From an uncultured Acidobacteriota bacterium (GTDB taxonomy: Bacteria; Acidobacteriota; UBA6911): a stretch of 64,000 nucleotides of DNA. Position 1 is the first letter of the stretch, and every line of letters begins with the position of its first letter. This document shows, one piece after another, positions 12,867 to 41,313 of this stretch. The stretch lies in assembly GCA_963843575.1 (NCBI GenBank), contig CAWJKZ010000014.1, forward strand, positions 160,001-224,000, written 5' to 3'. The position numbers were made by a program, and so were the translations under genes. Below the pieces are notes generated by a model, which was not told the origin of the DNA, ran no database searches, and saw only the letters and a program-made list of their open reading frames with translations.

Positions 12867-15226
12867 TCAGCGCAACGGATCAAAGCGTATTTTGTCCAGC
12901 AGCCAGGTGCCTGCGCCCTTGTGCATCGTGATAAAGGCCCGGTTGGCGGTTTCGAGTTTCTGACCGTCGAGCGTTTGGATCACATACACACGCCGTGCGG
13001 ACACGGTTGCGGAATCGCCCGAAATCCTGATGTCGGGTTCGACGAGCTGCACGCGGATCTCTCGGGCGTTCATGAACTCACTGCGCAGCGCTTCTTCCTG
13101 CTTGCCGCTCAATGTCGGCCATACGGTCTTCAGGGCAGCCATGTCTCTGGCCTGCAAGGCCGCGGCGTACTGCTGCAGCGAGGAGGATATGGCTTCGTGC
13201 TCCGACGTGGCGGACACAGGGGCCGGGGCGACCTCGGGGACAGCGGCGGGAGGTTTCGGCGCGTTCGCGAGGGCGGCGGAGACGGCCCGCTGCATCGACG
13301 CCGCGGCGGCGCCGAACTGGTCCTTCGCGGTGGTGTAGTCCTGGCGCTCGAAGGCAGCCTGGGCCTGCATCCCCAGGTTGAGCGCTTCCTGGAACTTCTG
13401 GGGTGCGCGCGCCGCCGCGTCGGCGTTTACCGCGCCCTGGCGCGCCTGGTCGAACGAGCGGCGGCCGAGCTCCGCCTCGGTGCGCAGCACGGCCGTCTGC
13501 CTGTCCTGTTCGGCTTGCCGCGCCCGTGCCTCGTTGCGGGCGTCTGCCTCCAGGGATGCACTCGTGTACAGGCCGCTCGTTTCGTACAGCTTAGCGGCCG
13601 CCTGCTCGAATTCGCGCCTCTCATAAAGACCGCGGGCTTCGAGCTCGGTCTTCTGCGCCGCCTCGTAAGATTTTACGGCCAGCTGGGGAGCCCCGGCTGC
13701 CTCTGCCCGCGACCTTGACTGAACCATCTGACGGAGCGCGTCCCCGGCAGCTTTCGCGGATGTTTCCTGATCGGGCGGCCTTGACGGTGCGTCGCCCGCT
13801 CGGGGACGGGATGACGTCCGGCCCCGGGCCACGGGCCGCGGCCTGGCTGGTCGTCGTACCGGGGTGTCGCGGTGAGGGCTGTGCGCCCGTCGATTCGGAA
13901 TCGGCAAAGGACGAGCGGGGCTGTACTTCTCCCGGCGCAGGGGCGGTGATCCCTCCGCTCCCGGGCTCCGGTTCCGGCCGCGGGGTGCCGGGGGGAGTCC
14001 GTGACGCACGGCGGTAGCGTTCGGGTGAACGGCTGTGGGAGAGGCGGCCGGCGACGGCAGGCTTGATCCCTGACCGCCCTGACTTTCCGCGGGCCCCCGG
14101 CGCAGCCACCAGATCGAGGACAGGGAAAGGACCAAGATCAGCGAGGCCCCTGCATACAGGATGGCCCTGCGCGGCGTGAGGGCCCTGGGACCCGTTCCCG
14201 ACACCTGGGCGTGGGAAGGCGATTCCGGCGCCTTGGAGCGCTCCAGCACGGGGGTGGGGGTAGTCGGCATCGTCCAGGCGGAATTGGCCCCATGCGTTTG
14301 CCCGGCGGGTGGTTCCTCCACCGGCTGTGGTTGGGGGATGGTCGGGGCTTCGAGCCAGGTGCCGTTCAACGACCACCCCGAGACCGCCGGACGCTCGCTC
14401 CCGCCGGCCCGGCCGCGGGAAGCGACGCGGCGACGCTCTCGAGGTCGCTCAGGAGTTCGTCGACGGTCTGGTAACGGTCTTGCACCTCCTTGGCCAGCGC
14501 GCGCATGACGATCGCGGCCAGACGGGGATCGATCGAGGCATCAAGTCGTTCCGGCGACTCAGGATCGGCTTGGAGTATTTTCATGATGGTCGCCGGAATC
14601 GAGTTCTCGTCGAAGGGACGGCGCAGCGTCAGCAGCTCGTAGGACAGGGCACCCACCGAAAATATGTCCCCCCGGTGATCGACGCGCTCGCCCCGCACCT
14701 GCTCCGGAGACATGTAGTTGGGTGTCCCGATCGGTGCGCCCGTGCGGGTGATGTCGCCGGCAACCAGGCGGGCCAGCCCGAAATCGAGGATCTTCACCTC
14801 CCCGGAGTTGGCCAGAAAGACATTGGCGGGTTTGATGTCCCGGTGTACGACCTGACGGCTGTGCGCGTGGCTCAGCCCCCGGCAGATGGCCTGCATGATT
14901 CGGAGCTTGCTGCCGAGCGACAAGGGTACCCGTTGCGTGATTTTCGCCTTGAGATCAGCGCCTTCCAGGTATTCCATCGCGAGGTAGGCTACGCCGTTGT
15001 CCTCGCCGATGTCGTAGATTGTGATGATGTTCGGATGGGACAAGCGCGCGGCCGAACGCCCCTCGCGAAAGAAGCGGGCCCTCAGTTCGGGTTCGGAGTC
15101 GAGGTGAGCGCTTATAGTCTTGAGAGCGACAACTCGTTCGAGCAGGGGATCCCGTGCCTTGTGGACGACTCCCATGCCACCCTGTCCCAGTTTCCCGAGG
15201 ATCAGGTATTTCCCTACCTTGTCCAA
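12867..15226 (-). CDS. Membrane Ser/Thr protein kinase with periplasmic helical and NTF2/SnoaL-like domains (apparent frameshifts near 14400, 14015, 13800)
   Basis: Kinase motifs (GQGGMG, VALK, HRDIKPAN, DFG, SPE) in ORF 14366-15295 with probable TTG start at 15226. TM AILYAGASLILVLSLSSIWWL and C-terminal QQYAAALQARDMAALKTVWP...DIRISGDSATV...GTWLLDKI lie in ORF 12867-14369. Confidence 0.75.
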
Positions 15227-15384
15227 GCGACCGCCCCGTTGCAGGCTTTCCGCGCCGCCACAGCCGGGACTTCGGAGCGAAACACCCCGAGGCACTCGTC
15301 GGACGCTGCTGCGAGTTTCGGTCTGATCTGCTGTTCGTGTCCCGAGCCGGGGTTTGGACCCGCCGACGCACTCAAGTGAGATCC

Positions 15385-15445: not shown

Positions 15446-15555
15446 AGATGTACATCGACAGTGATATTGTCTTTCGATATTATAATGGCAAGACGCCAGC
15501 TGACGGCGAACCGCGAACACCGAACGCCGGCATCCCGGACGGAGGAGCCAACCGC

Positions 15556-16161
15556 ATGGCGGACCCCATAGGTATCCTGACAGGCGAGCACCGCATCATC
15601 GAGGACGTCCTTGGGGCGCTTGAGAACTTCATCGAGCACCTCGGCTCCCCGGGGGCGCAGGAACGGAGCGATGTCGCCGCCTTTGCCCGGTTCTTCCACG
15701 AATTCGTGGATCGGTGTCACCACGGGAAAGAGGAAAACTACCTCTTCGTGCGAATGAGTGCGTACGGTTTTTCCAGGGAGAACGGTCCGGTGTCGGCCAT
15801 GCTCTCGGAGAAGGACGAGGGGCGCGACCACCTCCTCGCGCTTGCGGCTATCGGCGCGGGCGAGGGGCCCTTGAGCGGGAGGGAGCAGTCCGACGTGCGC
15901 GGGCACGGGCTCGGGTATATCCTGCGGATCCGTCCACATGTGATGCGGGAGGAGGACATCCTCTTCCCGATGGTGGTGCACGCCCTGCCCAGGTTCGTTC
16001 TCGACGAACTCGGACGCGATTTCGAGACCTTCGACCGCTCTACGCTCCCGCCCGGGTTTCACGAAGAGCTGCGTCGTCTCTCGACGAGCCTGGTCGCCCG
16101 CTATTCCTCCAGACGCGGGGATTCCAGAGCCGAAAAGGACGCGACGCGGGCTCGGTTTTAG
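15556..16161 (+). CDS. Hemerythrin/HHE cation-binding domain protein
   Basis: EHRII, DRCHHGKEENYLF, GPVSAML, HVMREEDILFP; GGAGGAG RBS before ATG 15556. Confidence 0.85.
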   Translation: MADPIGILTGEHRIIEDVLGALENFIEHLGSPGAQERSDVAAFARFFHEFVDRCHHGKEENYLFVRMSAYGFSRENGPVSAMLSEKDEGRDHLLALAAIGAGEGPLSGREQSDVRGHGLGYILRIRPHVMREEDILFPMVVHALPRFVLDELGRDFETFDRSTLPPGFHEELRRLSTSLVARYSSRRGDSRAEKDATRARF

Positions 16162-16313
16162 GCACCCGTCGGGAAGGGCCGCCAGGGGCTAGTTTTTTTG
16201 TTTCGCGGATTGCCGTTCATGGTATATTCCGCGCAAAGCCTCACGTATTGCGCCTGTTACAGGCGTGTTCCGATGGGGCTGAGGATCAACAGGTTCCAAG
16301 GAGAAGGATAAGA

Positions 16314-18266
16314 ATGCACAGACCGATCAAGTACGTGGAGAAGGCTTTGACCGTCACGGCTGGCATGGCGTTCGACACGATCCAGTTCTTCAACAAGCAC
16401 CGGCCGAATCCGTCATTCACGCCGAAATGGTCTGACAAGCCATTGCAGAAGTCCTGGCAGAAGACAAAGCCCCCACTTGGTTGGCCCCGCACCACGGACT
16501 CTCTGTGCCCGAGGTGCGTCATCGAGGCACGCAAGAAGATCCTCGACGGCGAAGAGGATTATCGAATCCTCATCAACGAGAAGGTCGGCGAGATCAAGGC
16601 CTCGATCGTTGATCGCGACGGCGAGATATGGATGGTCAAAGAGTGCCCGAAGCACGGCCGCTTCGAGGACCTCATGGCGGAGGACCGGAAGTTCCTGGAA
16701 CACGTCGAAGCCATGTACCCCGGGCGCGACATTGACGCGCACAACGACCAGGCCCTGCACAACCACGGCTCGAGCACCATCAAGTTCGGCCGCGGCGCCG
16801 TCCTGACCGTGGACCTGACCAACCGCTGCAACATGATGTGCGATCCGTGTTTCATGGATGCCAACCAGGTCGGCTTCGTCCACGAGCTGAGCTGGGAAGA
16901 GATCAAGGAAATTCTCGACAACGCGATAACCATCAAGCCGCGGCGCCAGATGTCGGTTCAGTTTTCCGGCGGCGAACCCACTTTGTCCCCGCATTTCTTC
17001 GACGCCATCGCCTATTCGCGCAAGGTGGGTTTCAACAGCGTTCAGGCGGCGACCAACGGCATCGAGTTCGCCAAGGACATCGCCTTCGCCCGGCGCGCCT
17101 ACGAGGCCGGGCTGCGTTACGTCTACCTGCAGTTTGACGGTGTCGGCAACGACGCGAACGGACACCGGAAGATCGGCAACCTCTTCGATGTGAAGCTGCG
17201 CGCCATAAACAACCTGCACGAGGCGGGCGTCGATATCGTGCTGGTCACGACGCTGGTCAACGGGATCAACAACGACCAGGTCGGTCCGATCATCCAGTTC
17301 GCGATGGACAATCCCAAGAAGATCTCGTTCATCTCCTTCCAGCCGGTGTCATTCACCGGCAGGGACGAGGAGGTCACCGACGAGCGCCGGCGCCAGCAGC
17401 GCTACACGCTGTGTCACATGGCGCATGACGTCAAGGACCAGCTCGGCATCTCGGAGCCGACGCGCGACTGGTTCCCGATCTCGACCATGAGCGTCTTCTC
17501 GGATTTCGCGGATCTCGTGCACGGGCCCCAGGCCGATTGGGGGCATCTCAGCTGCGGCTGCCACCCCAACTGCGGCGTGGGCACGGGGTTCATGATCAAC
17601 AAGGAGACCAAGGAACGGGCGATGGTGCCGGAGTTCATCAACGTCCCGCACCTGATCAAGGACACCCAGAAGGTCACCGATGCCGCTCGTAGCAAGGGTT
17701 TCTCGAACTTCATGATGGCGCTCGCGCTGCTGAAGAACTACGACCCGTTCAAGTCCCCGCGCAGCCTCAAGATGTCCGACATCCTCAAGAAGTTCGACAA
17801 GACCATGGGGGCCACCGGGCGCAGTTACGGCAAAGGCCTGGAGCGCCGGAAAGATCCGTGGAACTTCCTGTTCGTGGCGGGCATGTGGTTCCAGGACCTG
17901 TTCAACTACGATTTCCGGCGCACGGAGATGTGCATCATCCCTTACGGGACGCAGGAGGGAGAAATCTCCTTCTGCGCCTACAACACGGGGGTGGGTTGGC
18001 GGAATATCATCGAGAAGATGCACATGAACGCCACCGTCGCAGCCTGGTACAAGGAGTACGGCCGGCACAAGGTCTACGCCAACGGCAAGTCCGTCGAGCT
18101 CGACTCCTACGACCACAGCCTGGTGGTGGATCCGCTGGCCGCCGCGCGGGTCAGGGAGAAGCCCGCGGGTCCGCAGACCGCTCACGAAGAGGAACTGATG
18201 ATGCGGCGGATGTACGACGAGATGGTCCTCGGCAAGAAATCGGAGGACTTGGTTCAGCTCAAGTAG
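16314..18266 (+). CDS. Radical SAM protein homologous to tetraether lipid synthase (Tes/GDGT-MAS)
   Basis: N-terminal TDSLCPRC...KECPKHG; DLTNRCNMMCDPCF (CxxxCxxC); QFSGGEPT; YLQFDG; FQPVSFTGR; CHPNCG; GMWFQDLFNYD.RR..CII.Y...G.ISFCAYN. AAGGAGAAGGA RBS. Confidence 0.8.
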   Translation: MHRPIKYVEKALTVTAGMAFDTIQFFNKHRPNPSFTPKWSDKPLQKSWQKTKPPLGWPRTTDSLCPRCVIEARKKILDGEEDYRILINEKVGEIKASIVDRDGEIWMVKECPKHGRFEDLMAEDRKFLEHVEAMYPGRDIDAHNDQALHNHGSSTIKFGRGAVLTVDLTNRCNMMCDPCFMDANQVGFVHELSWEEIKEILDNAITIKPRRQMSVQFSGGEPTLSPHFFDAIAYSRKVGFNSVQAATNGIEFAKDIAFARRAYEAGLRYVYLQFDGVGNDANGHRKIGNLFDVKLRAINNLHEAGVDIVLVTTLVNGINNDQVGPIIQFAMDNPKKISFISFQPVSFTGRDEEVTDERRRQQRYTLCHMAHDVKDQLGISEPTRDWFPISTMSVFSDFADLVHGPQADWGHLSCGCHPNCGVGTGFMINKETKERAMVPEFINVPHLIKDTQKVTDAARSKGFSNFMMALALLKNYDPFKSPRSLKMSDILKKFDKTMGATGRSYGKGLERRKDPWNFLFVAGMWFQDLFNYDFRRTEMCIIPYGTQEGEISFCAYNTGVGWRNIIEKMHMNATVAAWYKEYGRHKVYANGKSVELDSYDHSLVVDPLAAARVREKPAGPQTAHEEELMMRRMYDEMVLGKKSEDLVQLK

Positions 18267-18290: not shown

Positions 18291-18326
18291 AACAGCGACG
18301 GGCGTGCGCGCTCGTCGCTGTTTTTT
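18291..18326 (+). terminator. Rho-independent terminator
   Basis: Stem AACAGCGACGGGCG, loop TGCG, stem CGCTCGTCGCTGTT running into a T tract, between convergent genes. Confidence 0.85.
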
Positions 18327-28443: not shown

Positions 28444-31020
28444 ATGCAAAACGAAGTCGGGCGCCTCCGGCGCAAATTCCGCGAGGGACGAGAGGGGCTC
28501 TTCACGCTCGCCGCCCGCCTGGCGCCCTGCCGGGAGTTGCTGGACCGCCACACGGCGCTCGTCGACGGCATCGTGCGCGAAATCTACGACGCCTCCTGCG
28601 CCTTCGCCGACGCCAGGACGGGCAGGACCGGGCGCTCCGGGCTGGCCATCGTCGCGACCGGCGGTTACGGCCGGTGCGAACTGAACCCTTACTCGGATAT
28701 CGATATCGCCTTCGTCCCCTCGGAAGAGGAGGATCCGTGGGTCGAGGCCGCCGTCCACATGGCCTTTCGCCTGCTCATGGACGTCTTCCTGTCGTTCCGG
28801 GAGGTGCACGTCGGCTACGCCTACCGGCCGGTCGGCGAGGGCTCGACGTGGGATCTGCCGACGAGGACCGCGCTGCTGGACGCGCGCTTCCTCTGCGGCG
28901 AGCCGCTCCTTGCCCAGGCGCTGAAGTGCCAGGTCCGGGAGGTGCTATCGTCGCTCGACCTCCTGTTGGAGACGCGTTCCCTGGGGGAGCGGTCGCGCGC
29001 GCACACGGTGCCCCCGACCTATTCGGTCGAGCCGAACCTGAAGGAGGGGAGGGGATCTCTGCGGGACCTGCATCGCGGCCGCTGGCTCTTCATGCTCCTT
29101 CTCGGTGTCGACCAAGACCAGCTCCCCGCGGCGCTCGAGCGGCACGAGATCCTGACCGGAGATGAGTTCGCGGCGGTGGAGGAGGCGGCGGCGTGGTTTT
29201 GGCGCGCGCGCAACTGGGTCCACCTCGTGGCGGGGAAGCGCTCCGACCTGATCATGAACAACCTGCAGGACCGCATCGCCCGCGAGCTGGGCGCCGCCTC
29301 CGCCCAGGCCTGGCTTGCCCAGCACTACGCGCGGGCCGAGACGCTGGCGCATTTCCGCGACGCCGCCGTGCGTAGCACCCTGCGCGGCCCGTTGCCGCTG
29401 GGGGGCCTCCAGCTGGAAAACGGCGCGTTTCACCTGCACGGCGCGGGAGGCACACGGGACTACGCTTCCGCCGTGCGCCTCTTCCACCTGGCGCAACGCC
29501 ACCGGATCCCAGTCGCCCTGGACGACGCGGCCGAGCTGGCGCACCGGCGGCTGGACTCGGGCCGGGCCGCGCCCGCCGCGGGCGAAGAGTGCTGGGCCTT
29601 TCTCGACGTGCTGCGCGAGGAGCGCGGCGTAGCCGCAACCCTGCGCACTCTCGCCAGCTTCGACCTGCTCGATCGTTTTGTCGACGGGTACTCGAACCTC
29701 ATGCGCTACGTGCCGCCGGATCCGGCGCACCGCTACACGGTAGGCGAGCATTCCTTCAGGATCGTGGAGGAACTGGAGTCGCTCCGCAGCGGCTCGGCGA
29801 CCGATGCGACCTCCCAGCGCTTCGCCGACCTCGTGGCGCAGTGTTCCCACTTCGACGTCCTGTGCCTGGCGGCGCTGCTGCACGATTCCGGCAAGATGCT
29901 GCAGGCCGCGGATCACAGCGAAGCCGGCCTGGCGCTGACACGCGCGGTCGCGAGGCGGCTGGGACTCGCGCCGGAAAAGTCCGATCTGCTGGAGCTTCTG
30001 GTGCGTCACCACCTTCTGCTGGTGCGCACGGGACGACTGGAGGACCTCAAGTCCCCCGGCGTCATCCAGGCGGTCGCGGAGAAGTTCCCCAATGTCGACG
30101 CCTTGCGACACCTCTACGTGTTCACGTATGCCGACACGAAGTCGGTGGGCGAGAAGAACTGGACGTCGATGGATTACCGGGACCTGGAAGACCTCTACCG
30201 CAAGGTGCAGGACGTTCTGGGCGGCCGCGCGGTCGAGAAGGGGGGCGAGGCGGCGCTCGAGGACCGGCGCGGCCAGGTGCGCCGGAAGCTCGCGGCCTCC
30301 GGCAAGGACGCCGACGAGCAAGCCGTGCGGCGGCACTGCGACGCGATGCCGGCCAGCTACATCCTGAACACCCCGCTGGACGAGATAGCGCTGCACCTGC
30401 AGCTGCTGACCCGGCTCGAGTCCGAGCGCGCCGTCCTGGACATTTACAACCGGCCGGGGGACGATTACTCCGAACTGACGATCTGCACCCACGACGATCC
30501 CCGGCCCGGAATGCTCGCCAAGATCACGGGGGTCCTCTACGGGTGCGACGTCGACATACACAAGGCCCAGGTCTTCACGATGGAGCGCGACCACCCCGTG
30601 GTGCTCGACACCCTCTGGATCCGCTCCAACGGACGGCAGGTCTCGGAATCGCGCGCCGCCCGCATCCGCTCGGCCCTGAAGGACGTGCTGACCCAAGTTC
30701 GGTCGCTGGAGCAATTCCTGTCCGGCGCCGGGAAACGGCCACCGGAAGGCATCCCCCTCGACAGCGTGCAGTTGCACAACGAACATTCCGAGGAGCACAC
30801 CGTCGTGCACGTCGTCGCCCGGGACCTGCAGGGCCTGCTGTACCTGATGACGCGTGCGCTGTCACGCTGCGGCCTGCACATACACTCCGCGAAGGTCGCG
30901 ACGTGGAACGCGCGGGCGGAGAACAACTTCTACGTTACCACCCTCGCGGGCGGCCAGATTCCCCAGCGAGACCTGCCGGAGTGGGAGAAAACGCTCACGC
31001 GCGCTTTTCTCGGATCGTGA
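28444..31020 (+). CDS. glnD: [Protein-PII] uridylyltransferase/uridylyl-removing enzyme
   Basis: ATGGYGRCELNPYSDID, EPNLKEGRGSLRDLH, HRYTVGEH, LLHDSGK (HD domain), two ACT domains. Confidence 0.9.
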   Translation: MQNEVGRLRRKFREGREGLFTLAARLAPCRELLDRHTALVDGIVREIYDASCAFADARTGRTGRSGLAIVATGGYGRCELNPYSDIDIAFVPSEEEDPWVEAAVHMAFRLLMDVFLSFREVHVGYAYRPVGEGSTWDLPTRTALLDARFLCGEPLLAQALKCQVREVLSSLDLLLETRSLGERSRAHTVPPTYSVEPNLKEGRGSLRDLHRGRWLFMLLLGVDQDQLPAALERHEILTGDEFAAVEEAAAWFWRARNWVHLVAGKRSDLIMNNLQDRIARELGAASAQAWLAQHYARAETLAHFRDAAVRSTLRGPLPLGGLQLENGAFHLHGAGGTRDYASAVRLFHLAQRHRIPVALDDAAELAHRRLDSGRAAPAAGEECWAFLDVLREERGVAATLRTLASFDLLDRFVDGYSNLMRYVPPDPAHRYTVGEHSFRIVEELESLRSGSATDATSQRFADLVAQCSHFDVLCLAALLHDSGKMLQAADHSEAGLALTRAVARRLGLAPEKSDLLELLVRHHLLLVRTGRLEDLKSPGVIQAVAEKFPNVDALRHLYVFTYADTKSVGEKNWTSMDYRDLEDLYRKVQDVLGGRAVEKGGEAALEDRRGQVRRKLAASGKDADEQAVRRHCDAMPASYILNTPLDEIALHLQLLTRLESERAVLDIYNRPGDDYSELTICTHDDPRPGMLAKITGVLYGCDVDIHKAQVFTMERDHPVVLDTLWIRSNGRQVSESRAARIRSALKDVLTQVRSLEQFLSGAGKRPPEGIPLDSVQLHNEHSEEHTVVHVVARDLQGLLYLMTRALSRCGLHIHSAKVATWNARAENNFYVTTLAGGQIPQRDLPEWEKTLTRAFLGS

Positions 31021-31086
31021 GGTCGTGGCGCAAGCTGTTCGACCGATACTTCTCGTCCTGACGGCGGGGTGCAGTCGCTTTGCCGA

Positions 31087-31703
31087 TCAGGGTTTGTCCG
31101 GCTTTTCCTGCGAGTCCAGGAGGAGCTCGAACGGTCCGACATCCCGCCCGGTGCCCCTGTTGGTCAACCCGGGGATAGTCAGCTTGGCGCCGACAAAGAA
31201 ATCCTGAGTCGGGGTCGGCGTGAAGAAAAAAATCAAGCCCTGGACCGTCCCGCCAGGTTCGACCTGGCCGCTGTGCAATTCCCTCGCCGGTCAGGGTGTC
31301 CAGCAGCGAGGTTTGTCCCCCTTTCCCGTCGCCCTTCCCGCGACTTCGGCTTGGGCGTCCTGCTGAACCCATTCCCGCCGGTGACGTCCTCGACCACGAT
31401 GGCCGCAGGGGTCGTGTACAGGCTCTGCCCGGAACGGGTGGACAACATCACTTTCCGGGTGCTGATCGAGATGTAGTCGGATGTGTCGTTGCGAATGGCG
31501 ACGAAAACGGGGAAGTAGCCGCGTTTGAGGAGATCCCGCAGTCAAACGCCGAGGCGGATTTTTCGGCGCGTCCGTAAGGTTCGGCCGCTACCGTCACGCC
31601 CCCAACCGTCGCCCGCGCGGCGTAGGATTCCACCGGCGGGGCCTGGCCGCCCACGATGCCCCCTGCCCCCCAAGGTCAGAAGCAGCAAGGACTGTTTCGA
31701 CAT
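31087..31703 (-). CDS. Hypothetical exported protein (several apparent frameshifts)
   Basis: Coherent pieces across frames: MSKQSLLLLTL, ESYAARATVGGVTVAAEPY, RGYFPVFVAIRNDTSDYISI, GQVEPGGTVQGLIFF...LTIPGL. Extended -10 TGCTATTAT lies 6 nt before the ATG. Confidence 0.55.
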
Positions 31704-31783
31704 GGTTTTATAATAGCACAGGTAGGCGCAACCCGCACAGTCCCAGCGGGTAAAGCAGTGGTGAAGACCAGCGTGACGCGCTG

Positions 31784-31813
31784 GTTGACAATCATTCGCT
31801 CACATTCTATATA
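31784..31813 (+). promoter_or_regulatory. dnaK sigma70 promoter overlapped by a degenerate HAIR-like site
   Basis: TTGACA-N17-TATATA; GTTGACA-N7-GCTCACA resembles CTTGAGT-N7-ACTCAAG; hspR is in the same operon. Confidence 0.5.
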
Positions 31814-31900
31814 GATAGGGCACTAAATGTGAATGGCAGGGCGCGTAGGCCGACTGCGGATAGTTTTGAGGAAAGCGAAATCGGAGGAGGAACAGACCAG

Positions 31901-33851
<1,951 letters not shown>

Positions 33852-33858
33852 GGCCGCA

Positions 33859-33884
33859 GGCGGACCCGGTCTCCCGGGTCCGCC
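33859..33884. other. GC-rich hairpin after dnaK (no U tract)
   Basis: GGCGGACCCGG-TCTC-CCGGGTCCGCC, a perfect 11-bp stem. Confidence 0.6.
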
Positions 33885-33936
33885 CGTTGCGCGGTAATTC
33901 CAGGCGCCCGGGGGGCGCGGCAGCGGGAGCGCTGGC

Positions 33937-34362
33937 ATGGCGAATCCAAGACAACGGAGCGGCACCCCGCGGGAGTGGGAGAGCCTGTACTCGCTCATGA
34001 TCCGCGACGAGTCTCCGGTCCAGGGCGCGTCGCTCGTGCCGCCGGTGGACATCTACGAGACGGGGGACTCGTTCACGTTGACGGCCGAACTCCCGGGCGT
34101 CGAAAGAAAAGACATCCGCATAGAGGTATCCGGGGCCGAACTGACCATCCGCGGCGAACGCCTGCTCGATCCCGTTTGCCGCGAGGAGAGCTACTACTGC
34201 CTAGAGGGGATGCGCGGGAGGTTCTGCCGAAAATTCCACTTGCCCGTAGACGTCGATGGCGAGGGGATCACGGCAGATCTCAAGGCGGGCGTCCTCACGG
34301 TCATCCTGCCGAAGGCCTCGCTTCATGCGAGGCGCATACCCGTCGTGTCGGATCGTTCATAG
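33937..34362 (+). CDS. Hsp20/alpha-crystallin small heat shock protein
   Basis: PPVDIYET, AELPGV, LTIRGER, GRFCRKFHLP, ADLKAGVLTVILPK. Confidence 0.9.
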   Translation: MANPRQRSGTPREWESLYSLMIRDESPVQGASLVPPVDIYETGDSFTLTAELPGVERKDIRIEVSGAELTIRGERLLDPVCREESYYCLEGMRGRFCRKFHLPVDVDGEGITADLKAGVLTVILPKASLHARRIPVVSDRS

Positions 34363-34371
34363 TCTGAAACC

Positions 34372-35517
34372 ATGGCCAAGGAAGACTACTATTCGATTCT
34401 GGGTGTTTCACGCTCCGCCAAACCGGCCGAAATCAAAAAGGCCTACCGGCGGCTGGCACGCAAGAACCACCCGGACGTAAACCCGGGGGACAAGTCTGCC
34501 GAGGAACGCTTCAAGAAGATCCAGGAAGCCTACGACGTGCTGAGCGAGCCGAAGAAGCGCGCGATGTACGATCAATACGGCTTCTATTCGGAAAACTTCA
34601 AAGAGCCCCCGCCGGGAGAAGCGGGGTTCGGCCGTTCCGCCGGGGGGCCTCGCGGGGGATTCGATTTCTCGGGCATGGATTTCGGCGCGGAGCAGGGGGG
34701 TGGCAGTTTCCGGGACGTATTCGCCGATCTTTTCGGCGGCGGAGGGACGGAGCGGGGCCGCGCAGCGGGACCCCACAAGGGAAACGATCTCGAGCACTAC
34801 CTCAACATCTCGTTTTTCGAGGCGATCCGCGGTCTGTCGACTCGCCTGACGATAAACCGTCCGGAGGCTTGCAGCGCGTGCCAGGGGAGCGGCATGGAGC
34901 GCGGCAAAGCCCAGCAGGTGTGCCCGACCTGCAACGGTACCGGCCAGGAGGGACGATCGCACGGCATCATGCGTTTTTCCGGACCCTGCAGGACTTGCGG
35001 CGGCACCGGCCGGGTCGGCAGCCGGTGCCCGGTCTGCGGTGGTTCCGGGACGGTCCCGGTGCACGAGACCCTAACGGTCCGTATCCCACCCGGGGTCAAC
35101 AACGGTTTCCGAATGCGCGTCCCGCGCAAGGGTGGCGCCGGTAAGGCCGGGGGCGCTCCCGGTGATCTCTACCTGATTATCAGCGTGCGCCCGCACGAGT
35201 TCTTCCGTCGCGAGGGGAACGACATCCTGTGTACCGTTCCGATCACGGTTACCGAAGCCGCCCTCGGAACCAAGATCGAGGTGCCGACACTCGACGGCAA
35301 GACCCTGCTGCGCATCCCCCCCGGCACCCAGAGCGGCCAGAAATTCCGCCTGAGGGGCAAGGGCGCCCCGTCGCTGCGGGGCGACAATCATGGCAACCAG
35401 ATCCTAGAAGTGCGCGTTCTCGTCCCCAAGGTGGCAGACGAACGCTCGAAGGAGATACTGCGGGAGTTGGCCCGCCTGAACCCAGAGGACCCAAGGGCCG
35501 GCCTCGGCCCGTTTTAA
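34372..35517 (+). CDS. dnaJ: Molecular chaperone DnaJ
   Basis: J domain with HPD, G/F-rich region, four CxxCxGxG repeats. Confidence 0.95.
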
Positions 35518-35532
35518 CGGAGCAGGTGAAAC

Positions 35533-35901
35533 GTGAGTCCACGGAAAAAGGCCGGGTACATGATCAGCGCAGTCGCAGAGATTTATCACATCCACCCGCA
35601 GACTCTCCGCCTGTACGAGCGGCTCGGTCTGCTCAAACCCTCGCGCAGCGACGGCAACACGCGCCTGTACACCGAAGCCGACCTCGAACGCCTGGAGGTC
35701 ATCCTCGCGCTTACGCGCGACCTTGGCGTGAACCTCGCGGGAGTCGAAGTCATCTTGACCATGCGGGAAAAGATGGAGAGAATGCAGCGGCAGGTGCAGG
35801 AAATGCTGGAGTACGTGCGCGAGCACATGTCGCCGACAACGGGTTCAACCGACGCTCTCGTGAGGGTGTCCGCGGCCAAGATCGTCCGCAGCCGCCGCTA
35901 G
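35533..35901 (+). CDS. hspR: MerR-family heat-shock repressor HspR
   Basis: YMISAVAE...IHPQTLRLYERLGLLKPSRSDGNTRLY, LGVNLAGVE; follows dnaJ. Confidence 0.85.
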   Translation: MSPRKKAGYMISAVAEIYHIHPQTLRLYERLGLLKPSRSDGNTRLYTEADLERLEVILALTRDLGVNLAGVEVILTMREKMERMQRQVQEMLEYVREHMSPTTGSTDALVRVSAAKIVRSRR

Positions 35902-35906
35902 CGCGC

Positions 35907-36716
35907 ATGCCTTCTCTTCTCGTTTTTCTGTGGGGGCTTTTCGCAACGGCAGGGCCCGCTCCTCGCGAGACGCTTTCCTACTCTCAGACATACCGCATTT
36001 TCGTGAAGGGCGAGGCCGTCGGCACGGAGTCCGTCTCCGAGACGTCCGATGCGCAGGGAAACCTGGTTTCGTCCGGCCGGCACGAAGTCTTCGTTGCGGA
36101 CGGGCTCGAGAAGAAGCGGATGGCGTTCACGACGCGACTGGTGCTTGGGGCCAAAGACCTCGCGCCAGTGAGTTACTCGTGCGTGTACACGTCGGGGGAG
36201 GCCAGGGACTCCTACACCGTCACCGTCCGAAACGGCCGGCTGGAACGAGTGCTCACGCGCGGGGGACACACGAGCTCCGTGAAGGTCCCCCGGCCACCGG
36301 ACCTTGTCGTGATCGATTTCAGCGTCTACCACCATTACGACTACCTGATCCGCAGATACGATTCCAGGAAGGGCGGGCGCCAGGAGTTCCGCAACTTCAT
36401 CCCGGTGATCGGCGCCGAGGTTCCCCTGGCGCTCACGCGCCTGGAGGATTCGCAGCTCGAGGCGGCGGGCGTTTCCATTCCAGTGCGCAACTTTCGCGTC
36501 GAGTTCGTCGGAATTCTGACCGGGACGCTGTCGACTGACCGCGCGGGCCGGTTGGTGCGGCTCCTGGTGCCGCAGCAGGACCTGCAGGTCCTGCGGGAGG
36601 ATCTGGTGCCGGAGACGCCGGGCGGCGGTTCGGTTCAAGGGAGCGAGGGCTCCTCGGGCAGCGGCACCGCGGCGGCTGCCTGTGCCGCGCGCAGCCGCGA
36701 CCGGATCAGCCGGTAG
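35907..36716 (+). CDS. Hypothetical exported beta-rich protein
   Basis: Signal-like N-terminus MPSLLVFLWGLFATAG; beta-strand-rich body ending DRAGRLVRLLVPQQDLQVLRE. The 3' end overlaps the convergent gene and is uncertain. Confidence 0.6.
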   Translation: MPSLLVFLWGLFATAGPAPRETLSYSQTYRIFVKGEAVGTESVSETSDAQGNLVSSGRHEVFVADGLEKKRMAFTTRLVLGAKDLAPVSYSCVYTSGEARDSYTVTVRNGRLERVLTRGGHTSSVKVPRPPDLVVIDFSVYHHYDYLIRRYDSRKGGRQEFRNFIPVIGAEVPLALTRLEDSQLEAAGVSIPVRNFRVEFVGILTGTLSTDRAGRLVRLLVPQQDLQVLREDLVPETPGGGSVQGSEGSSGSGTAAAACAARSRDRISR

Positions 36717-37183
36717 ACGCGCTCCAGCACGTAGGTCCGCATCCGGGAATCACGAGGGAACATCGACCGCACCGCTTGATTGACCCCGACCAGCGAAGCC
36801 TCAAGTTCGGGGAACAGCCTCTCGGTAAGTGTGGGATCGTAGGGAAGCTTGACGCTGCGACAGCCGATCTCCGAAAACAGTTTAAGGTATCGGGCAGTGG
36901 GCATGTCGGGGCAGTGGATGCGCTTGTAGGACGCCTGCACCTCGTAGCCGAGCAACGTGTGGATGACGCGGGCGCTGCTTTTGCGCCCCAGCAGGTGGAT
37001 GGTCCTGGTCTTCACCGGCAGCACTTCGGTGCGGTAAATGCCGACGAGCCCGCGCCCGGGCTCGGCCTCTTCTATGGCATCGAGTATCTTGCGGAGCGGA
37101 ACTCGGGCGCGGGGCGAACCAGCCGGGGCGGGTGCGGCTTCCTGGAGTTCCCTGCGGCTCGCGGCCCCCCGCTGTCTTGGCAT
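36635..37183 (-). CDS. Hypothetical protein
   Basis: C-terminal part of ORF 36635-38230 from ATG 37183; globular segment IYRTEVLPVKTR...HTLLGYEV...RIHCPDMPTARYLKLFSEIG...LPYDPT. Confidence 0.6.
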   Translation of the reverse strand: MPRQRGAASRRELQEAAPAPAGSPRARVPLRKILDAIEEAEPGRGLVGIYRTEVLPVKTRTIHLLGRKSSARVIHTLLGYEVQASYKRIHCPDMPTARYLKLFSEIGCRSVKLPYDPTLTERLFPELEASLVGVNQAVRSMFPRDSRMRTYVLERVYRLIRSRLRAAQAAAAVPLPEEPSLP

Positions 37184-37190
37184 CGACGTG

Positions 37191-38230
37191 TTACTCGACC
37201 TGTTGGCGCCTGTGCGCTGATTGAGAAGCCGTTGCGCTTGCCGGCGCACCAGCTCGGAGATGCCGCGGTCCCGCGCGACTGCCTGCAGGTCGCGCGTCTG
37301 CAACCGCGTGACAAGCCCCTGCGAGACCATAGGAGGGGTTTTGGGGTTCCTGACCAGGTTGAGCGCTACCGGATAGCTGCGCGCCCACTCGCGGCTGCCG
37401 CCTATGGATCGTAGAATATCGTCGGACACGTTGCGCATCGCCGCGAATCCCTCGACTTCACTTTCGGTCAGCTTCGGGCTGTGCAGGACGGCATGCGAAA
37501 TCAGGCGGTTGGTGTCGCGGATCAGGACGTTCCTGGCCTCGCGGGGCCGGTCATGGCCACCTTGATCTTCTCCCGCACCGTCATTCTTGAGACGCGGTCG
37601 AGGAGCGCTCCCTCCCTGGCCTGGGGGTCGGTGGGCAGCCCTTCGAGCCACAGATCGTCGGGCGGGAGCTCCGCTTCGAGTTCCGGGGCTTCCGTGTGGC
37701 CGACGGAGGCTTGCCCCTCGGTGGTTACCGAATAGTCGAGCTTCTTGTCGCTGAAGAACTCCTGCTCGATTTCGTGGACCAGCCGCAGCACTTCGGGCGT
37801 GGAGGCGGGATTCTCTGGCGTTGCGCAGAATCCCGGGGAATTGGAGGAGCCGTACACGGTTGAAGAGGATCGCCTCGATCAGCGGACCGGGCACACGCGT
37901 GGCCATGTCCTCGACCACCGGGCCGGAAGTCGAGGGATTGAGGATCACGGCTTCGGCCAGCGCAGACCTCTGCGCTGCGCGAGAAATACTCGAGAACCGG
38001 GACCGGGCAGGCGCGCGACTTGAGCTGCTCCAGGATCTCTTCTTCGGGCCATGCCTCGAGGGTGCGGCCGGCCTGAAGCGCGACCTCTTCGTCGGCGTCC
38101 CGTGCCAGGAGTGCCAGAAGGTGGACCAGTTCCTGGGGAGGCAGCGGAGCCGTTCCGCGGGCCACTGCCAGCCGGATGTTCTTCGCCGGGCTTGTGCGAG
38201 GAAGGTCTCGAAAAATGAGCTCGGGGTCAT
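37191..38230 (-). CDS. Helical-repeat hypothetical protein (apparent frameshifts)
   Basis: AARGTAPLPPQELVHLL..., EKIKVAMTG, REARNVLIRDTNRLISHAVLHSPKLTESEVE, LVRNPKTP across frames; ATG overlaps the rodZ stop. Confidence 0.65.
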
Positions 38231-39108
38231 GGGCTTTGTGCGGACGGCTGCAGCAGGTCGGCGAGGTTTTGCTCGGTTATGAGCACTTTCACGACGTCGC
38301 CCGGCTTTCCGAGCGCTTTGGCCGGCTTCCCGTTGATGGTCAGGCGGACTCCGCCCGCGTTGCCAAGGACGACGAGGATGCTCTCGTCGGCGGAGAAGTC
38401 CCTTGTGTCACCGGGATTGAGCTGCTGGGCAAGAACCTTCCGGTTGTCGGCGGTCACGGAGGTCCAGCACGTCTGAAGCACCTCGAACCGGATCCGGAGC
38501 TTCGCCGTCGCCGTGTCGGCGGTCCCGGCGGCCGCGGGGGCGCCTGCAGCCACCGATGGACCGGGTGCCTGCGTCGCCGGTCCTCCTGTCTCGACTGGAG
38601 CCTCGCTCGCCGGGGCCGGCACGGGGGCCGGGACCGCTGGCGGAGCATCCTGGCGCGGCGCCGGCGGGACCGGGGCCGGCGGTGCTTCCACCCGTGCGGC
38701 AGGCGGTCGTGAGAAATAGGGCGAGAAGACTTCGGAGATCCAGTGCCTGCTGAAAAAAATGCCTGCGGTGGATGCGGCGAGCATCAGGACCCATGCGAAC
38801 AGCGGGTGAGATCCGCGCCTGGACGAATTTTGCGGGACAGGCACCTTGGCCCGGTAGGTCTTCTTCTCGAGCACAGGGGGCATCTCGGCGTCGTAACGCT
38901 GGAGGATTGGCTGGGGATCGAGGCCGAGATACTCGGAGTAGGCCCGCAGGAAGGCGCGGTTATACATGCCCCCAGGCAAGTCGCGATATCGGCTTTCCTC
39001 GATGTTCTGCAGATGCCGATAGCTGATGCGCGTCTCTTGGGCCACCTCGCTTAACGAGAGCTTGCGCCCTTCCCGAGCCAGCTTGAATATTGTGCCGAGG
39101 GACTCCAT
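38227..39108 (-). CDS. rodZ: RodZ-like protein (HTH, TM, DUF4115)
   Basis: LG..FKLAREGRKLSLSEVAQETRIS...LPGGMYNRAFLRAYSEYLGLD; TM; CWTSVTAD...LGNAGGVRLTING. Confidence 0.85.
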   Translation of the reverse strand: MESLGTIFKLAREGRKLSLSEVAQETRISYRHLQNIEESRYRDLPGGMYNRAFLRAYSEYLGLDPQPILQRYDAEMPPVLEKKTYRAKVPVPQNSSRRGSHPLFAWVLMLAASTAGIFFSRHWISEVFSPYFSRPPAARVEAPPAPVPPAPRQDAPPAVPAPVPAPASEAPVETGGPATQAPGPSVAAGAPAAAGTADTATAKLRIRFEVLQTCWTSVTADNRKVLAQQLNPGDTRDFSADESILVVLGNAGGVRLTINGKPAKALGKPGDVVKVLITEQNLADLLQPSAQSP

Positions 39109-39219
39109 AGGAACGGGATCTACAAAATGGGCAGCGGACTACTGTTCAGTACTTCGCCTGCCGAAAAGCCACAGCACCTGAAAAGAAATGAGCCTGCTGG
39201 ACTTTGCGGATGAATACAC

Positions 39220-39248
39220 ATTCTACTGCCTCCTGAAGGGAGTGTCAA
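39220..39248 (-). promoter_or_regulatory. sigma70 promoter of the rodZ operon
   Basis: TTGACA-N17-TAGAAT on the minus strand, about 110 nt upstream of the ATG. Confidence 0.7.
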
Positions 39249-39494
39249 TCGACGATGGTACTCGATGCGGATCCGGGCTGGCGGTTTTGCCGCAGATTGA
39301 CGCTTCCATGCCGATGTGTTAGGGTCTGGGGAGGGCGTGGACGCAGGCACACCGCCCACTCCAGGACACAGCGCCCTCGTCGATCTCCGCGTTCACTGTC
39401 CCTCCTGGCAAGCAAGAACCTGATTCTTACGGAGAATCATCTGTGATTGGCCCTTGGTCCGCGCCAAGGGGTCCGGGCGGTAAGACTGAAGCAC

Positions 39495-40128
39495 ATGATG
39501 CTCTTCTGGGTGATGCTGGAGCCCTGGTTGGCCAAGGTCGGAGCTTGGCTCCGGTATATTGCCGCCAACCTGGACGGCCCGGGCTTGCTCCTTGTGGCTT
39601 TGTTCGATTCCTCCTTTCTGTCGATACCGGAAGGGCAACGACGTCCTGATCGTCCTCCTGTCGTCCGGCAACACATGGAAGAACATGGCCTACTACGTGG
39701 GCATGACCACCGCCGGGTCCATCGCCGGCTGCCTGCTGTTGTACACGGTCGGCCGCAAGGGGGGCAGCCCGATCCTGCACAAGCGGTTCTCGGCGGACAA
39801 CATCCAAAGAGCGGAGAGGCTGTTTGAGAAGTACGGCGTCCTGACGGTGGTACTACCGAGCATCCTGCCCCCGCCCTGTCCATTCAAGATATTCGTCCTC
39901 AGCGCCGGCGTCTTCCGTCTGAGGCTTGCGGAATTCGTAGCTGCTATAGCCATAGGGCGTACCGTGCGTTATTCGATGTGGGGAGTCCTTGCGCTGCTGT
40001 ACGGCGATTCCGTCAAGGTCTACATGCAGCAGAATTTGCCCAAGATAGGCATTGCGCTATTTGGCATGCTCGCGCTGGCCCTTGCCGTTCTGCTGTGGAA
40101 TTATTTCAGTCGCACGCGCCGCGCCTGA
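39495..40128 (+). CDS. DedA/YqaA (VTT) family membrane protein, frameshift near 39635
   Basis: GLLLVALFDSSFLSIPE, AGSIAG...GRKGG, LPPPCPFKIFVLSAG, GRTVRY. Start uncertain. Confidence 0.8.
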
Positions 40129-40340
40129 CCGGCGCCCGATTTTTCGACATTCGCCGCAACAAAGAGTTCCAGGCCGGGGCGCAACCAGGGCTACCAGCCC
40201 CGTAACTCTTTGTTTTGGTGTATCTTTATAGCGCGCGCGGCTGTGGGGTGCTTATTGCGTCTGTGGCGGCGTGAACGGGGCCGGCGACTGGCCACTTGGC
40301 GAAATGATTGAAAATATTGAGGCTATTATCACTCGCCGCG

Positions 40341-40368
40341 TTGACATTGGTGAGGTGTTTGCTAGATT
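40341..40368 (+). promoter_or_regulatory. sigma70 promoter of the Lol-like cluster
   Basis: TTGACA-N16-TAGATT with TGn extension. Confidence 0.55.
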
Positions 40369-40403
40369 CACGGGCTGTTAATCACCTGAAGGGGCACTTC
40401 TTG

Positions 40404-41307
40404 GTGGAACGTTTCATTCGATTCCTGCGTAGCGCACTGCTCGGGGTGGCAGCGGCGGCGATATTGTCCGCGACGGGGTGCGGTATAAAGCGCACGGTCA
40501 CCCTGCCGACCGCTCCAAAGATCGCTCAGGCCAAGACTGCCTCTCTGGGAGAACTGCTCTCGAACCTCGAGACTTATAGCAACCGGGTTTCATCGCTGGT
40601 TTCCAATGCGATGCGGGTTACGTTCACCTCCGGCAGGGTCGAATCCGGCAAGCTGCAGGAGTACCGCAGCGCTCCCGGGTACATCCTGCTCAAGCGCCCC
40701 GATTCTATCCGCCTGAACGTGCAAAACCCTCTGACGAAGACGAGCATCGTGGAACTCGTGTCGGTGGGAGACCGGTTCAGCGTCTGGTACCCGCGCGAAA
40801 ACAAGTTCTACCTGGGGAAGAACAGCGCGAGGGAACTGGAGGTCGAGGGGGCTCCCAGTTTTTCCGCCCGGCCGAGCCACATTTTCGAAGCGGTCTTCCC
40901 GCAGAAGCTCGTCTTCAAAGAGCCGGGCTACCGTATCGCCATGGAAGAGGAGCGGGATGCGACGACCAAGTATTACGTGCTGACCGTGTTCCGTGACGCG
41001 GGGGATGCGGAAGCTCGAGCCGGTGCGAAAACTGTGGGTCGACCGTTCGGATCTCAGCGTGGCCCGCCAGTTCGTCTACGGCGAACACGGCGTTGTGGTC
41101 AGCATGATCCAGTACTCGAATCTCGTGCCCGCCGACGGCGTAGTCCTCCCGCTTTCGATACGGATCGAGCGGCCGATCGACGGATACATCCTGGACATGC
41201 AGTTTCAGTCCTGGCGAGTAAACATGGAGTTGCCGGACACCGCTTTCGTGATGAGCCCTCCCCAGGGCGCGCAGCAGGTGGTGCTCAAGGAGAAGGGAAG
41301 AGGCTGA
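40404..41307 (+). CDS. Lipoprotein with LolA/LolB-like fold (DUF4292-like), frameshift near 41010
   Basis: Lipobox ATGC; GYILLKRPDSIRL, GDRFSVWYPRENKFYLG, RKLWVDRSDL, LPLSIRIERP, VNMELPDTAF. Confidence 0.65.
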
Positions 41308-41313
41308 TCCGTC

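Follow-up and report, generated by a model that had tools for sequence, protein, structure and literature searches.

Branched glycerol dialkyl glycerol tetraethers, or brGDGTs, count among the terrestrial palaeothermometers and pH proxies in widest use, and although the Acidobacteria are their main presumed producers, the enzyme that joins two iso-C15 chains in these bacteria is still sought. A 64,000-nucleotide stretch of DNA from an uncultured Acidobacteriota bacterium (contig CAWJKZ010000014.1, positions 160,001 to 224,000; hereafter the window) raises the question of whether one of its genes codes for such an enzyme. A preliminary description of the window, made from the letters alone, took a gene for a protein (P0001) of the radical S-adenosylmethionine (SAM) type to be a bacterial homologue of tetraether synthase (Tes or GDGT-MAS) from archaea, and thus a candidate for making lipids that span the membrane. 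Sequence comparison places the protein in a bacterial branch that is sister to tetraether synthase and that we call type B, and the reading that we favor, with a probability of about 0.55, is that it would carry out a Tes-like tail-to-tail coupling of iso-branched lipid chains through sp3-sp3 bonds, giving iso-diabolic-acid-type or brGDGT-type lipids. This reading draws on homology, on the retained catalytic residues, and on the distribution of the gene. That acidobacterial Tes homologues are candidates for making membrane-spanning lipids has already been published (Zeng et al. 2022; Halamka et al. 2022); what the present analysis contributes is a more precise delimitation of the clade, an account of its distribution, and two cases missed by a published presence/absence table, with the window adding one member.

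A relative of tetraether synthase with the catalytic ligand set retained

The motifs on which the gene was first recognized are all present in its product, with SLCPRC (residues 63–68) and KECPKHG (109–115) toward the N-terminus, CNMMCDPC (172–179) in the radical SAM core, and a C-terminal set comprising CHPNCG (416–421), GMWFQD (523–528), CIIPY (540–544), and FCAYN (553–557) that aligns with the ligand set of the C-terminal auxiliary cluster ([4Fe-4S]C), Met439, and Tyr459 of GDGT-MAS. They are not chance occurrences, because Pfam finds both the rubredoxin-like and the radical SAM domains and the protein aligns to GDGT-MAS over residues 93–559. This enzyme, from M. jannaschii (7TOL/7TOM), is the best sequence match in the PDB over that span (E 7e-62), followed by MoaA (E 1e-9). 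An AlphaFold2 model built from a 53-sequence alignment has a mean predicted local distance difference test score (pLDDT) of 89 and a predicted template modelling score (pTM) of 0.90, with pLDDT below 50 only in the loop at residues 142–154 and in the last six residues (645–650). The top Foldseek matches of this model are again 7TOM (E 5e-37) and 7TOL (E 1.5e-35), with a target-normalised template modelling (TM) score of 0.88 at 27–28% identity, and MoaA is next at 0.50. Sequence, domain order, and predicted fold thus agree in bearing out the proposed homology to MJ0619/Tes, and the order of rubredoxin-like domain, radical SAM core, and C-terminal cluster domain is that of MJ0619 and also of the Tes proteins of M. 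acetivorans and Sulfolobus acidocaldarius. These proteins have in common a C-x2-C...C-x2-H site, the CxxxCxxC motif, three C-terminal cysteines with a methionine, a tyrosine, and the sequence FQPVSFTGR.

Four metal centers are described for GDGT-MAS by Lloyd et al. (2022) and a 2026 review: a rubredoxin-like iron (C9, C12, C33, and H36), an N-terminal auxiliary cluster ([4Fe-4S]N), the radical SAM cluster, and [4Fe-4S]C. Lloyd et al. (2022) give the ligands of [4Fe-4S]N as C73, C77, and C80 plus a histidine, and those of [4Fe-4S]C as three cysteines and a labile Met439, with the strictly conserved Tyr459 nearby. Residue equivalences were taken from an alignment to 7tol_A, in which the PDB chain numbering is that of the paper plus 20 (checked on C33/H36 and C73/C77/C80). 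By this alignment the rubredoxin-like site is kept, with C65, C68, C111, and H114 corresponding to C9, C12, C33, and H36; the last three of these residues are invariant among the 53 aligned sequences, and C65 is kept in at least 90% of them. The radical SAM cysteines C172, C176, and C179 are likewise invariant, and the SAM contacts are retained, F180 standing for F106 and Q343, S346, and R350 for Q268, S271, and R275, with the FQPVSFTGR loop identical in both proteins. In the C-terminal domain M524 and Y544 take the places of Met439 and Tyr459 and are accompanied by C420, C540, and C554, each of the five being kept in at least 90% of the 53 sequences; from this conservation the three cysteines are likely to be the ligands of [4Fe-4S]C.

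These residues bear on the possibility that only the Tes scaffold has been kept and that the substrate is not a lipid but, for example, a cofactor, a peptide, or some other metabolite. Among NCBIfam models Tes (NF045702) scores highest, at 327.2 bits, under its curated equivalog cut-off of 450 bits, and the second is TrsS (NF045646); both the shortfall and the TrsS match could be taken to favor a non-lipid role, as could the lack of adjacent lipid genes and the names of the orthologues, many of which JGI calls after a pterin methyltransferase and which have carried the old names '7,8-dihydro-6-hydroxymethylpterin dimethyltransferase' and 'Fe-S oxidoreductase'. The pterin name is presumably older than the work on GDGT-MAS. 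It belonged to the family of MJ0619 (Pfam HMPTM), and MJ0619 has since been shown to be GDGT-MAS (Lloyd et al. 2022). The TrsS score itself is 217.7 bits, far under the cut-off of 490 bits and lower than the Tes score, and the whole Tes-specific C-terminal domain is kept with its ligands in a fold that matches over its full length (TM 0.88). In 80 related loci the gene has no conserved precursor-peptide or cofactor operon next to it, and we regard a non-lipid substrate as quite improbable.

A bacterial sister branch lacking the N-terminal cluster ligands

A representative library supplied 589 proteins of the family at E<=1e-30. Twenty-five full-length representatives were scored against the Tes model; 13 reach its cut-off, and the 12 that fall below it include all seven from the side of the family in which the N-terminal cluster motif is missing (171–414 bits). 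A first tree (64 rows, quick IQ-TREE search) splits the family in two with a support of 100 in the SH-like approximate likelihood ratio test (SH-aLRT), and a second (37 rows, careful search) gives the same split at 100/100. P0137 is in neither tree, on account of its degenerate radical SAM motif, and the second omits 28 of the 65 rows, namely P0137, long-branch rows, and redundant rows. On one side lie the window's protein, 25 named loci, P0121, P0126, and four more divergent sequences including P0130. All of the cut-off passers are on the other side, including proteins labelled Methanomassiliicoccales, Thermoplasmata, and Thorarchaeota, and bacterial members labelled Terriglobia ('tetraether lipid synthase Tes'), Bryobacteraceae, Sulfopaludibacter, Gemmatimonadota, and Latescibacteria. 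We use "canonical" as a label for this side, five rows of which score below the cut-off. Both trees are unrooted, so that loss of the N-terminal cluster and an earlier branching of type B cannot be told apart in them, and the experimentally proven Tes proteins are not among their rows. Across classes of Acidobacteriota type B shows 64–94% identity, and type-B proteins are 27–35% identical to canonical sequences; their tree roughly follows taxonomy, which indicates a conserved cellular function.

The split coincides with a difference in the fourth metal center. Between C111 and C172 the window's protein contains no cysteine, and the stretch facing the canonical CPxxCGxCxxH motif reads ALHNHGSSTIKF. 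Because this loop offers neither cysteine nor histidine ligands, the sequence implies that the N-terminal auxiliary cluster cannot be bound in the archaeal way. Searched as a regular expression, the CPxxCGxCxxH motif is found in none of the 33 rows (P0137 included) that make up the window's side of the family and in 27 of the 32 on the other; among the remaining five, P0182 and P0249 have a variant spacing and P0227, P0238, and P0270 lack the full triad. We note that these last three, of which P0227 (labelled Parcubacteria) and P0270 pass the Tes cut-off, are on the canonical side and are without part or all of the cysteine triad, and because they too have lost it, the cluster appears to have been lost more than once in the family. 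No published description of a missing N cluster was found in the literature outside subscription journals and bioRxiv supplements. Conserved extensions also lengthen the protein at both ends relative to GDGT-MAS, one of about 57 residues at the N-terminus, with a confident helix at residues 4–27 followed by SFTPKWSDKPL...PPLGWPR, and one of about 80 residues at the C-terminus.

The protein is thus not a canonical Tes, and to this extent the preliminary description is not supported as worded. With 327 bits against 450, it lies across a split of 100 and 100/100 from every cut-off passer, and it has none of the [4Fe-4S]N ligands, a feature that had gone unnoticed. It differs from GDGT-MAS further in its low identity (27–28%), its terminal extensions, its separate clade, and its bacterial host, which shows no sign of an archaeal lipid pathway. 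The canonical bacterial Tes homologues (Terriglobia, Bryobacteraceae, Ca. Sulfopaludibacter, Gemmatimonadota, and Latescibacteria metagenome-assembled genomes, or MAGs) are members of the same family as type B, come in part from the same phylum, and are the subject of the same published iso-diabolic acid and brGDGT hypothesis; however, they are about 540–550 residues long, contain CPxxCGxCxxH, pass the profile, and group with the archaeal sequences. These considerations also weigh on the idea that the protein is a true Tes orthologue making archaeal-type isoprenoid GDGTs in a bacterium, for which homology and fold are the only arguments. Against it are the score under the equivalog cut-off, the separate clade, and the statement of Zeng et al. 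(2022) that GDGT production is not known from any bacterium. In addition, a search of the genome, which is 88% complete, gave no PcrB/GGGP synthase, and an isoprenoid substrate is therefore unlikely. We consider this the least credible explanation, with very little to recommend it.

Type B across the Acidobacteriota

Relatives in a collection of named genomes were sought with a 12-sequence alignment, and 593 of 601 candidate stretches encode one. The best 80 of the 593 were examined, and these are 64–77% identical to the window's protein. Seventy carry acidobacterial labels, including Blastocatellia, Pyrinomonadaceae, Chloracidobacterium, Vicinamibacterales, Acidobacteriaceae, Terriglobales, Bryobacterales, Solibacter, Edaphobacter, Terracidiphilus, and Granulicella aggregans M8UP14; six are labelled Gemmatimonadota, and four are apparently mis-binned MAGs. 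The acidobacterial association proposed for the gene is thus well founded, its relatives being overwhelmingly acidobacterial. The four odd labels (L009, L069, L077, and L081, from Clostridia, Betaproteobacteria, Bifidobacteriaceae, and a 'proteobacterium') belong to type-B genes that are 65–77% identical and nested in acidobacterial clades, and they are probably mis-binned or mislabelled contigs.

A sample of 401 Acidobacteriota genomes, the window's own among them, gives a similar picture. Matches at E<=1e-30 occur in 244 of them, which by hand count comprise 190 strong ones with a best E<=4e-195 and 54 weaker than 1e-160, and all 37 other genomes of the window's class match, 35 of them strongly; the figures of 244, 190, and 37/37 rest in part on three unpublished genomes (G049, G152, and G024), all with matches of type-B strength. 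Canonical Tes, taken as a protein that passes the profile cut-off, is present in 45 of the 401, and eight of these 45 also have a match of type-B strength, so that about 182 of about 190 type-B carriers (hand count) are without canonical Tes. No canonical Tes was found in the window's genome, which is 88% complete, and G280 and G300 likewise show type B only. Within the window's family, four of the six further genomes (G063, G210, G220, and G290) have both a canonical Tes, at 469–580 bits, and a match of type-B strength.

The eight genomes with both types would fit two distinct jobs, and this raises the possibility that type B uses Tes-like cluster chemistry to make a different lipid bond, through intramolecular macrocyclisation of a diacyl or dialkyl glycerolipid, a mid-chain cross-link of the GMGT kind, or ring formation. 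GDGT-MAS itself makes both macrocyclic archaeol and GDGT, as reported in Lloyd et al. (2022) and the 2026 review. An altered regiochemistry is conceivable because type B has long been separated from canonical Tes (100/100), is extended by about 57 residues at the N-terminus and 80 at the C-terminus, and has no N cluster. On the other hand, the active-site tyrosine and methionine and the C-cluster ligands are unchanged in type B. Moreover, since most type-B carriers have no canonical Tes and Mss is reported missing from Acidobacteria, their abundant iso-diabolic acid would otherwise be without a candidate coupling enzyme. We view a different lipid bond as unlikely, although it deserves to be kept in mind.

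Earlier evidence for and against a Tes route

Several points in the literature bear on the tail-to-tail coupling that we favor. Zeng et al. (2022) listed 456 bacterial Tes homologues and proposed them as brGDGT makers, reporting 32% identity for the Edaphobacter aggregans homologue and 40–42% to M. acetivorans Tes for the top hits of Koribacter versatilis and Solibacter usitatus; the latter two probably belong to the canonical bacterial group. Halamka et al. (2022) set out a Tes/PlsAR/Grs pathway for S. usitatus. According to a paper in FEMS Microbiol Ecol (2026), which cites Chen et al. 2025 for this, brGDGTs occur in S. usitatus together with homologues of Tes and Ger; in K. versatilis, iso-diabolic tetraesters go with a Tes homologue alone.

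Sahonero-Canavesi et al. (2022) doubted the Tes route. Their screen used E<=1e-50 and an identity of at least 30% to M. aeolicus Tes, and their Table S21 gives a Tes accession in 3 of 14 acidobacteria that produce iso-diabolic acid. Since type-B proteins are 27–35% identical to canonical ones, a 30% threshold would miss many of them. Two entries illustrate this: Terriglobus roseus DSM 18391 is blank in the Tes column of that table, yet it has P0130, a protein on the no-N-cluster side that lies outside the type-B core, and Granulicella aggregans is also blank, while another strain, M8UP14, has a type-B orthologue (L071) that is 65% identical. The '3 of 14' argument therefore does not bear on type B, and the negative evidence in print carries less weight than it seems to. 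Subdivisions 4, 6, 1, and 3 are reported in the same paper to make iso-diabolic acid, and the named type-B carriers include Blastocatellia, Vicinamibacterales, Acidobacteriaceae, and Bryobacterales, which are subdivisions 4, 6, 1, and 3.

The other bacterial enzyme to be compared is Mss of Thermotoga maritima and Thermoanaerobacter ethanolicus, a radical SAM protein that couples fatty-acid tails into diabolic-type diacids in anaerobic E. coli and for which coupling through an auxiliary-cluster radical is proposed, as for Tes (Sahonero-Canavesi et al. 2022). Its authors describe the kinship with Tes as no more than remote, and their screen of acidobacterial genomes turned up no Mss homologue; it is by this published description only that we set Mss apart from the window's protein.

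A proposed model for lipid tail coupling by type-B proteins

By analogy with GDGT-MAS, the CxxxCxxC cluster would cleave SAM, and the terminal carbon of one lipid tail would lose a hydrogen to the resulting 5'-deoxyadenosyl radical. A sulfide of the C-terminal [4Fe-4S] cluster would then hold the substrate radical, which a second SAM-derived radical, on a second tail, could attack to form the C(sp3)–C(sp3) bond. As tails we predict iso-branched C15-type acyl or alkyl chains carried by glycerolipids, and as products iso-diabolic-acid-type membrane-spanning lipids. We propose that the missing N-terminal cluster reflects a different route of electron delivery and not a different chemistry.

The step from ester to ether bonds, before or after coupling, might be provided by two BBD proteins of 1139 and 1114 residues that are encoded outside the window (G000 C25:45145-48576 and C16:113836-117345), each with two BcrAD_BadFG domains and a DUF2229, and the result would be brGDGT-type lipids. 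This architecture is given for the Ger homologue of Edaphobacter aggregans in Table S21 of Sahonero-Canavesi et al. (2022), who describe the BBD core as the part conserved in all Ger homologues of alkyl-ether producers. The search for ger suggested in the preliminary description thus yields two Ger/PlsA-like candidates of the BBD type, and no match to the HGD-D domain (PF06050) was found in the genome. A parallel search for elbD was less rewarding, as the best NAD_binding_4 match is a stand-alone reductase of 418 residues and no multi-domain ElbD-like open reading frame (ORF) was seen. What the sequences show is the homology, the fold, the ligand set, the clade, its distribution, and an intact gene with expression signals of its own; the substrate, the product, and a connection with the BBD proteins are inferred.

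A broader and more tentative proposal, which we hold to be slightly short of an even chance, is that type B, and neither canonical Tes nor Mss, makes iso-diabolic acid, the brGDGT backbone, in Acidobacteria of subdivisions 1, 3, 4, and 6. It would do so with two [4Fe-4S] clusters and a rubredoxin-like iron, the N cluster being dispensable, and the conclusion that an unrelated pathway is at work would have arisen because screens at an identity of at least 30% under-counted type B. If this is so, then the type-B gene could serve as a marker for producers of brGDGTs or iso-diabolic acid in soils and sediments, homologous enzymes would make membrane-spanning lipids in bacteria and archaea, and one of the four metal centers of Tes would not be needed for the chemistry.

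A number of observations count against a role in tail-to-tail coupling. The protein falls outside Tes by cut-off score, by its [4Fe-4S]N ligands, and by phylogenetic grouping, and no lipid genes adjoin the type-B gene in the window or in the 80 related loci. The correspondence with iso-diabolic acid producers rests on the taxonomic labels of MAGs and on two cultured strains, and the 157 of 401 genomes that have no match at E<=1e-30 are not mapped to lipid phenotype. Most cultured Acidobacteria are aerobes, and the oxygen sensitivity of radical SAM enzymes has been raised as an objection (Sahonero-Canavesi et al. 2022), although numerous aerobes rely on enzymes of this kind. No bacterial Tes homologue has been experimentally confirmed, according to Ding et al. 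2025 (Environ Microbiol), and we found no enzymatic or genetic test of an acidobacterial or other bacterial Tes homologue in the literature outside subscription journals and bioRxiv supplements. The involvement of Tes in tetraester synthesis that is attributed to Chen et al. 2025 (Geochim Cosmochim Acta) is known to us by citation only, and the correlation may concern the canonical Tes of Koribacter and Solibacter and not type B.

The gene and its expression signals

The gene is a single-copy one, by a search of its own genome (88% complete), and the claim that it is intact and carries its own expression signals holds: the reading frame ends in one terminal stop, AAGGAG is present at 16298-16303, 10 nt ahead of the ATG, and a terminator hairpin follows, which together describe a monocistronic gene (Table 1). 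A longer ORF is available from a GTG at 15714, but we rejected this in-frame upstream extension; it overlaps the neighboring hemerythrin gene, and orthologues start at the residue that matches 16314. The hairpin folds at -27.4 kcal/mol against -11.4 +/- 2.3 for 200 shuffled sequences (z -6.8), none of which is as stable, and it was missed by a simple terminator scan because its stem contains one mismatch.

Table 1. Features of the Tes-like radical SAM gene and its upstream neighbor, in window coordinates
Feature	Position	Strand	Basis or remark
Hemerythrin HHE-domain gene	15448-16161	+	Pfam E 5e-16; directly upstream, same strand
Putative promoter-like block TGGTATATTCCGCGC	16220..16234	+	Extended -10 (TGnTATATT) or weak sigma-54-type GG-N10-GC
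Predicted 5'-leader stem-loop	16237..16280	+	-22.4 kcal/mol, z -2.8
Ribosome-binding site AAGGAGAAGGA	16298..16308	+	Read from sequence; 10 nt 5' of ATG 16314
Coding sequence, 650-aa Tes-like radical SAM protein (P0001)	16314..18266	+	Translation; one terminal stop
Rubredoxin-like/zinc-ribbon domain, aa 58-122; ligands C65, C68, C111, H114	16485..16679	+	Pfam PF23545 (Zn_ribbon_HMPTM), E 7e-14
Cysteine-free loop, aa 142-154, at position of archaeal [4Fe-4S]N motif C-x3-C-x2-C-x2-H	16737..16775	+	Alignment
Radical SAM core, aa 168-330; C172-x3-C176-x2-C179	16815..17303	+	Pfam PF04055, E 1e-19
C-terminal auxiliary-cluster domain, aa 414-557; C420, M524, C540, Y544, C554	17553..17984	+	Alignment to GDGT-MAS
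Intrinsic terminator: GC stem, 4-nt loop, T-run	18295..18326	+	Fold energy against shuffles

Upstream of the gene, the promoter-like block TGGTATATTCCGCGC is identical in the nearest related genome, G280 (L108, G280:C3; orthologue 82% identical), in which the flanking upstream DNA has diverged. In its exact form this 15-mer is found a single time in the 6.68-Mb genome of the window, where TGnTATAWT occurs 55 times on both strands. The hairpin in the 5' leader has a counterpart in G280 at the same relative place with a different sequence (-31.7 kcal/mol, z -3.7; block and hairpin together span about 385-460 of L108), and Rfam gives no match in the leader or elsewhere in the window. The genome contains rpoN. 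A sigma-54 promoter was considered and, as a family-wide feature, rejected, the strict TGGYAY-N5-NNGCW being found within 250 nt upstream in three of the 80 loci (L018, L019, and L024) and being absent upstream in 17 of 19 same-class or near genomes, those with a placeable start. The window has the weaker version only, which is there indistinguishable from an extended -10 promoter.

In two metatranscriptome runs belonging to the same study there are contigs that match the gene in its 5' part, over 246 nt with no differences and over 255 nt with one. Such libraries may contain DNA, and the matches give neither strand nor level, the parts that they leave uncovered carrying no meaning; we take them as a weak hint that 16314..18266 is transcribed.

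Neighboring genes and other lipid functions

Gene neighborhoods were clustered from ORFs of at least 90 residues within 4 kb in the 80 related loci and the window, with overlapping alternative-frame ORFs set aside. A conserved operon partner was sought and rejected, the commonest neighbor family being present in 15 of the 80 loci and having no Pfam match; other families, each in no more than 10 of the 80, include lytic transglycosylase/SPOR, MutY-like, SurE, PCMT, QueG, VTT, radical SAM, and UDP-glucose dehydrogenase. In the window the gene is accompanied by the hemerythrin gene on the plus strand and, on the minus strand, by a Ser/Thr kinase, a transporter of the major facilitator superfamily (MFS), and leuD and leuC. 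None of the hemerythrin, kinase, MFS, and leuCD neighbors is shared with any of the 80 related loci, and because the hemerythrin pairing is seen in none of them, it is probably incidental. An oxygen-sensing link between a hemerythrin gene and an oxygen-sensitive radical SAM gene would be of interest, and low oxygen is reported to trigger brGDGT production.

Elsewhere in the genome, at about 30000–41400 of G000 C20, there is a row of five ORFs of 468–618 residues with B12-binding domains, beside a radical SAM match. This looks like a cobalamin-dependent radical SAM cluster, the members of which could be methylases, including lipid methylases. Finally, we note that the kinase ORF (14366-15295, minus strand, 309 residues) ends 4 nt inside the start of a 500-residue proline-rich ORF (12867-14369) with a weak DUF4440 at its C-terminus, and the two may be either a frameshift-split kinase gene or two coupled genes.

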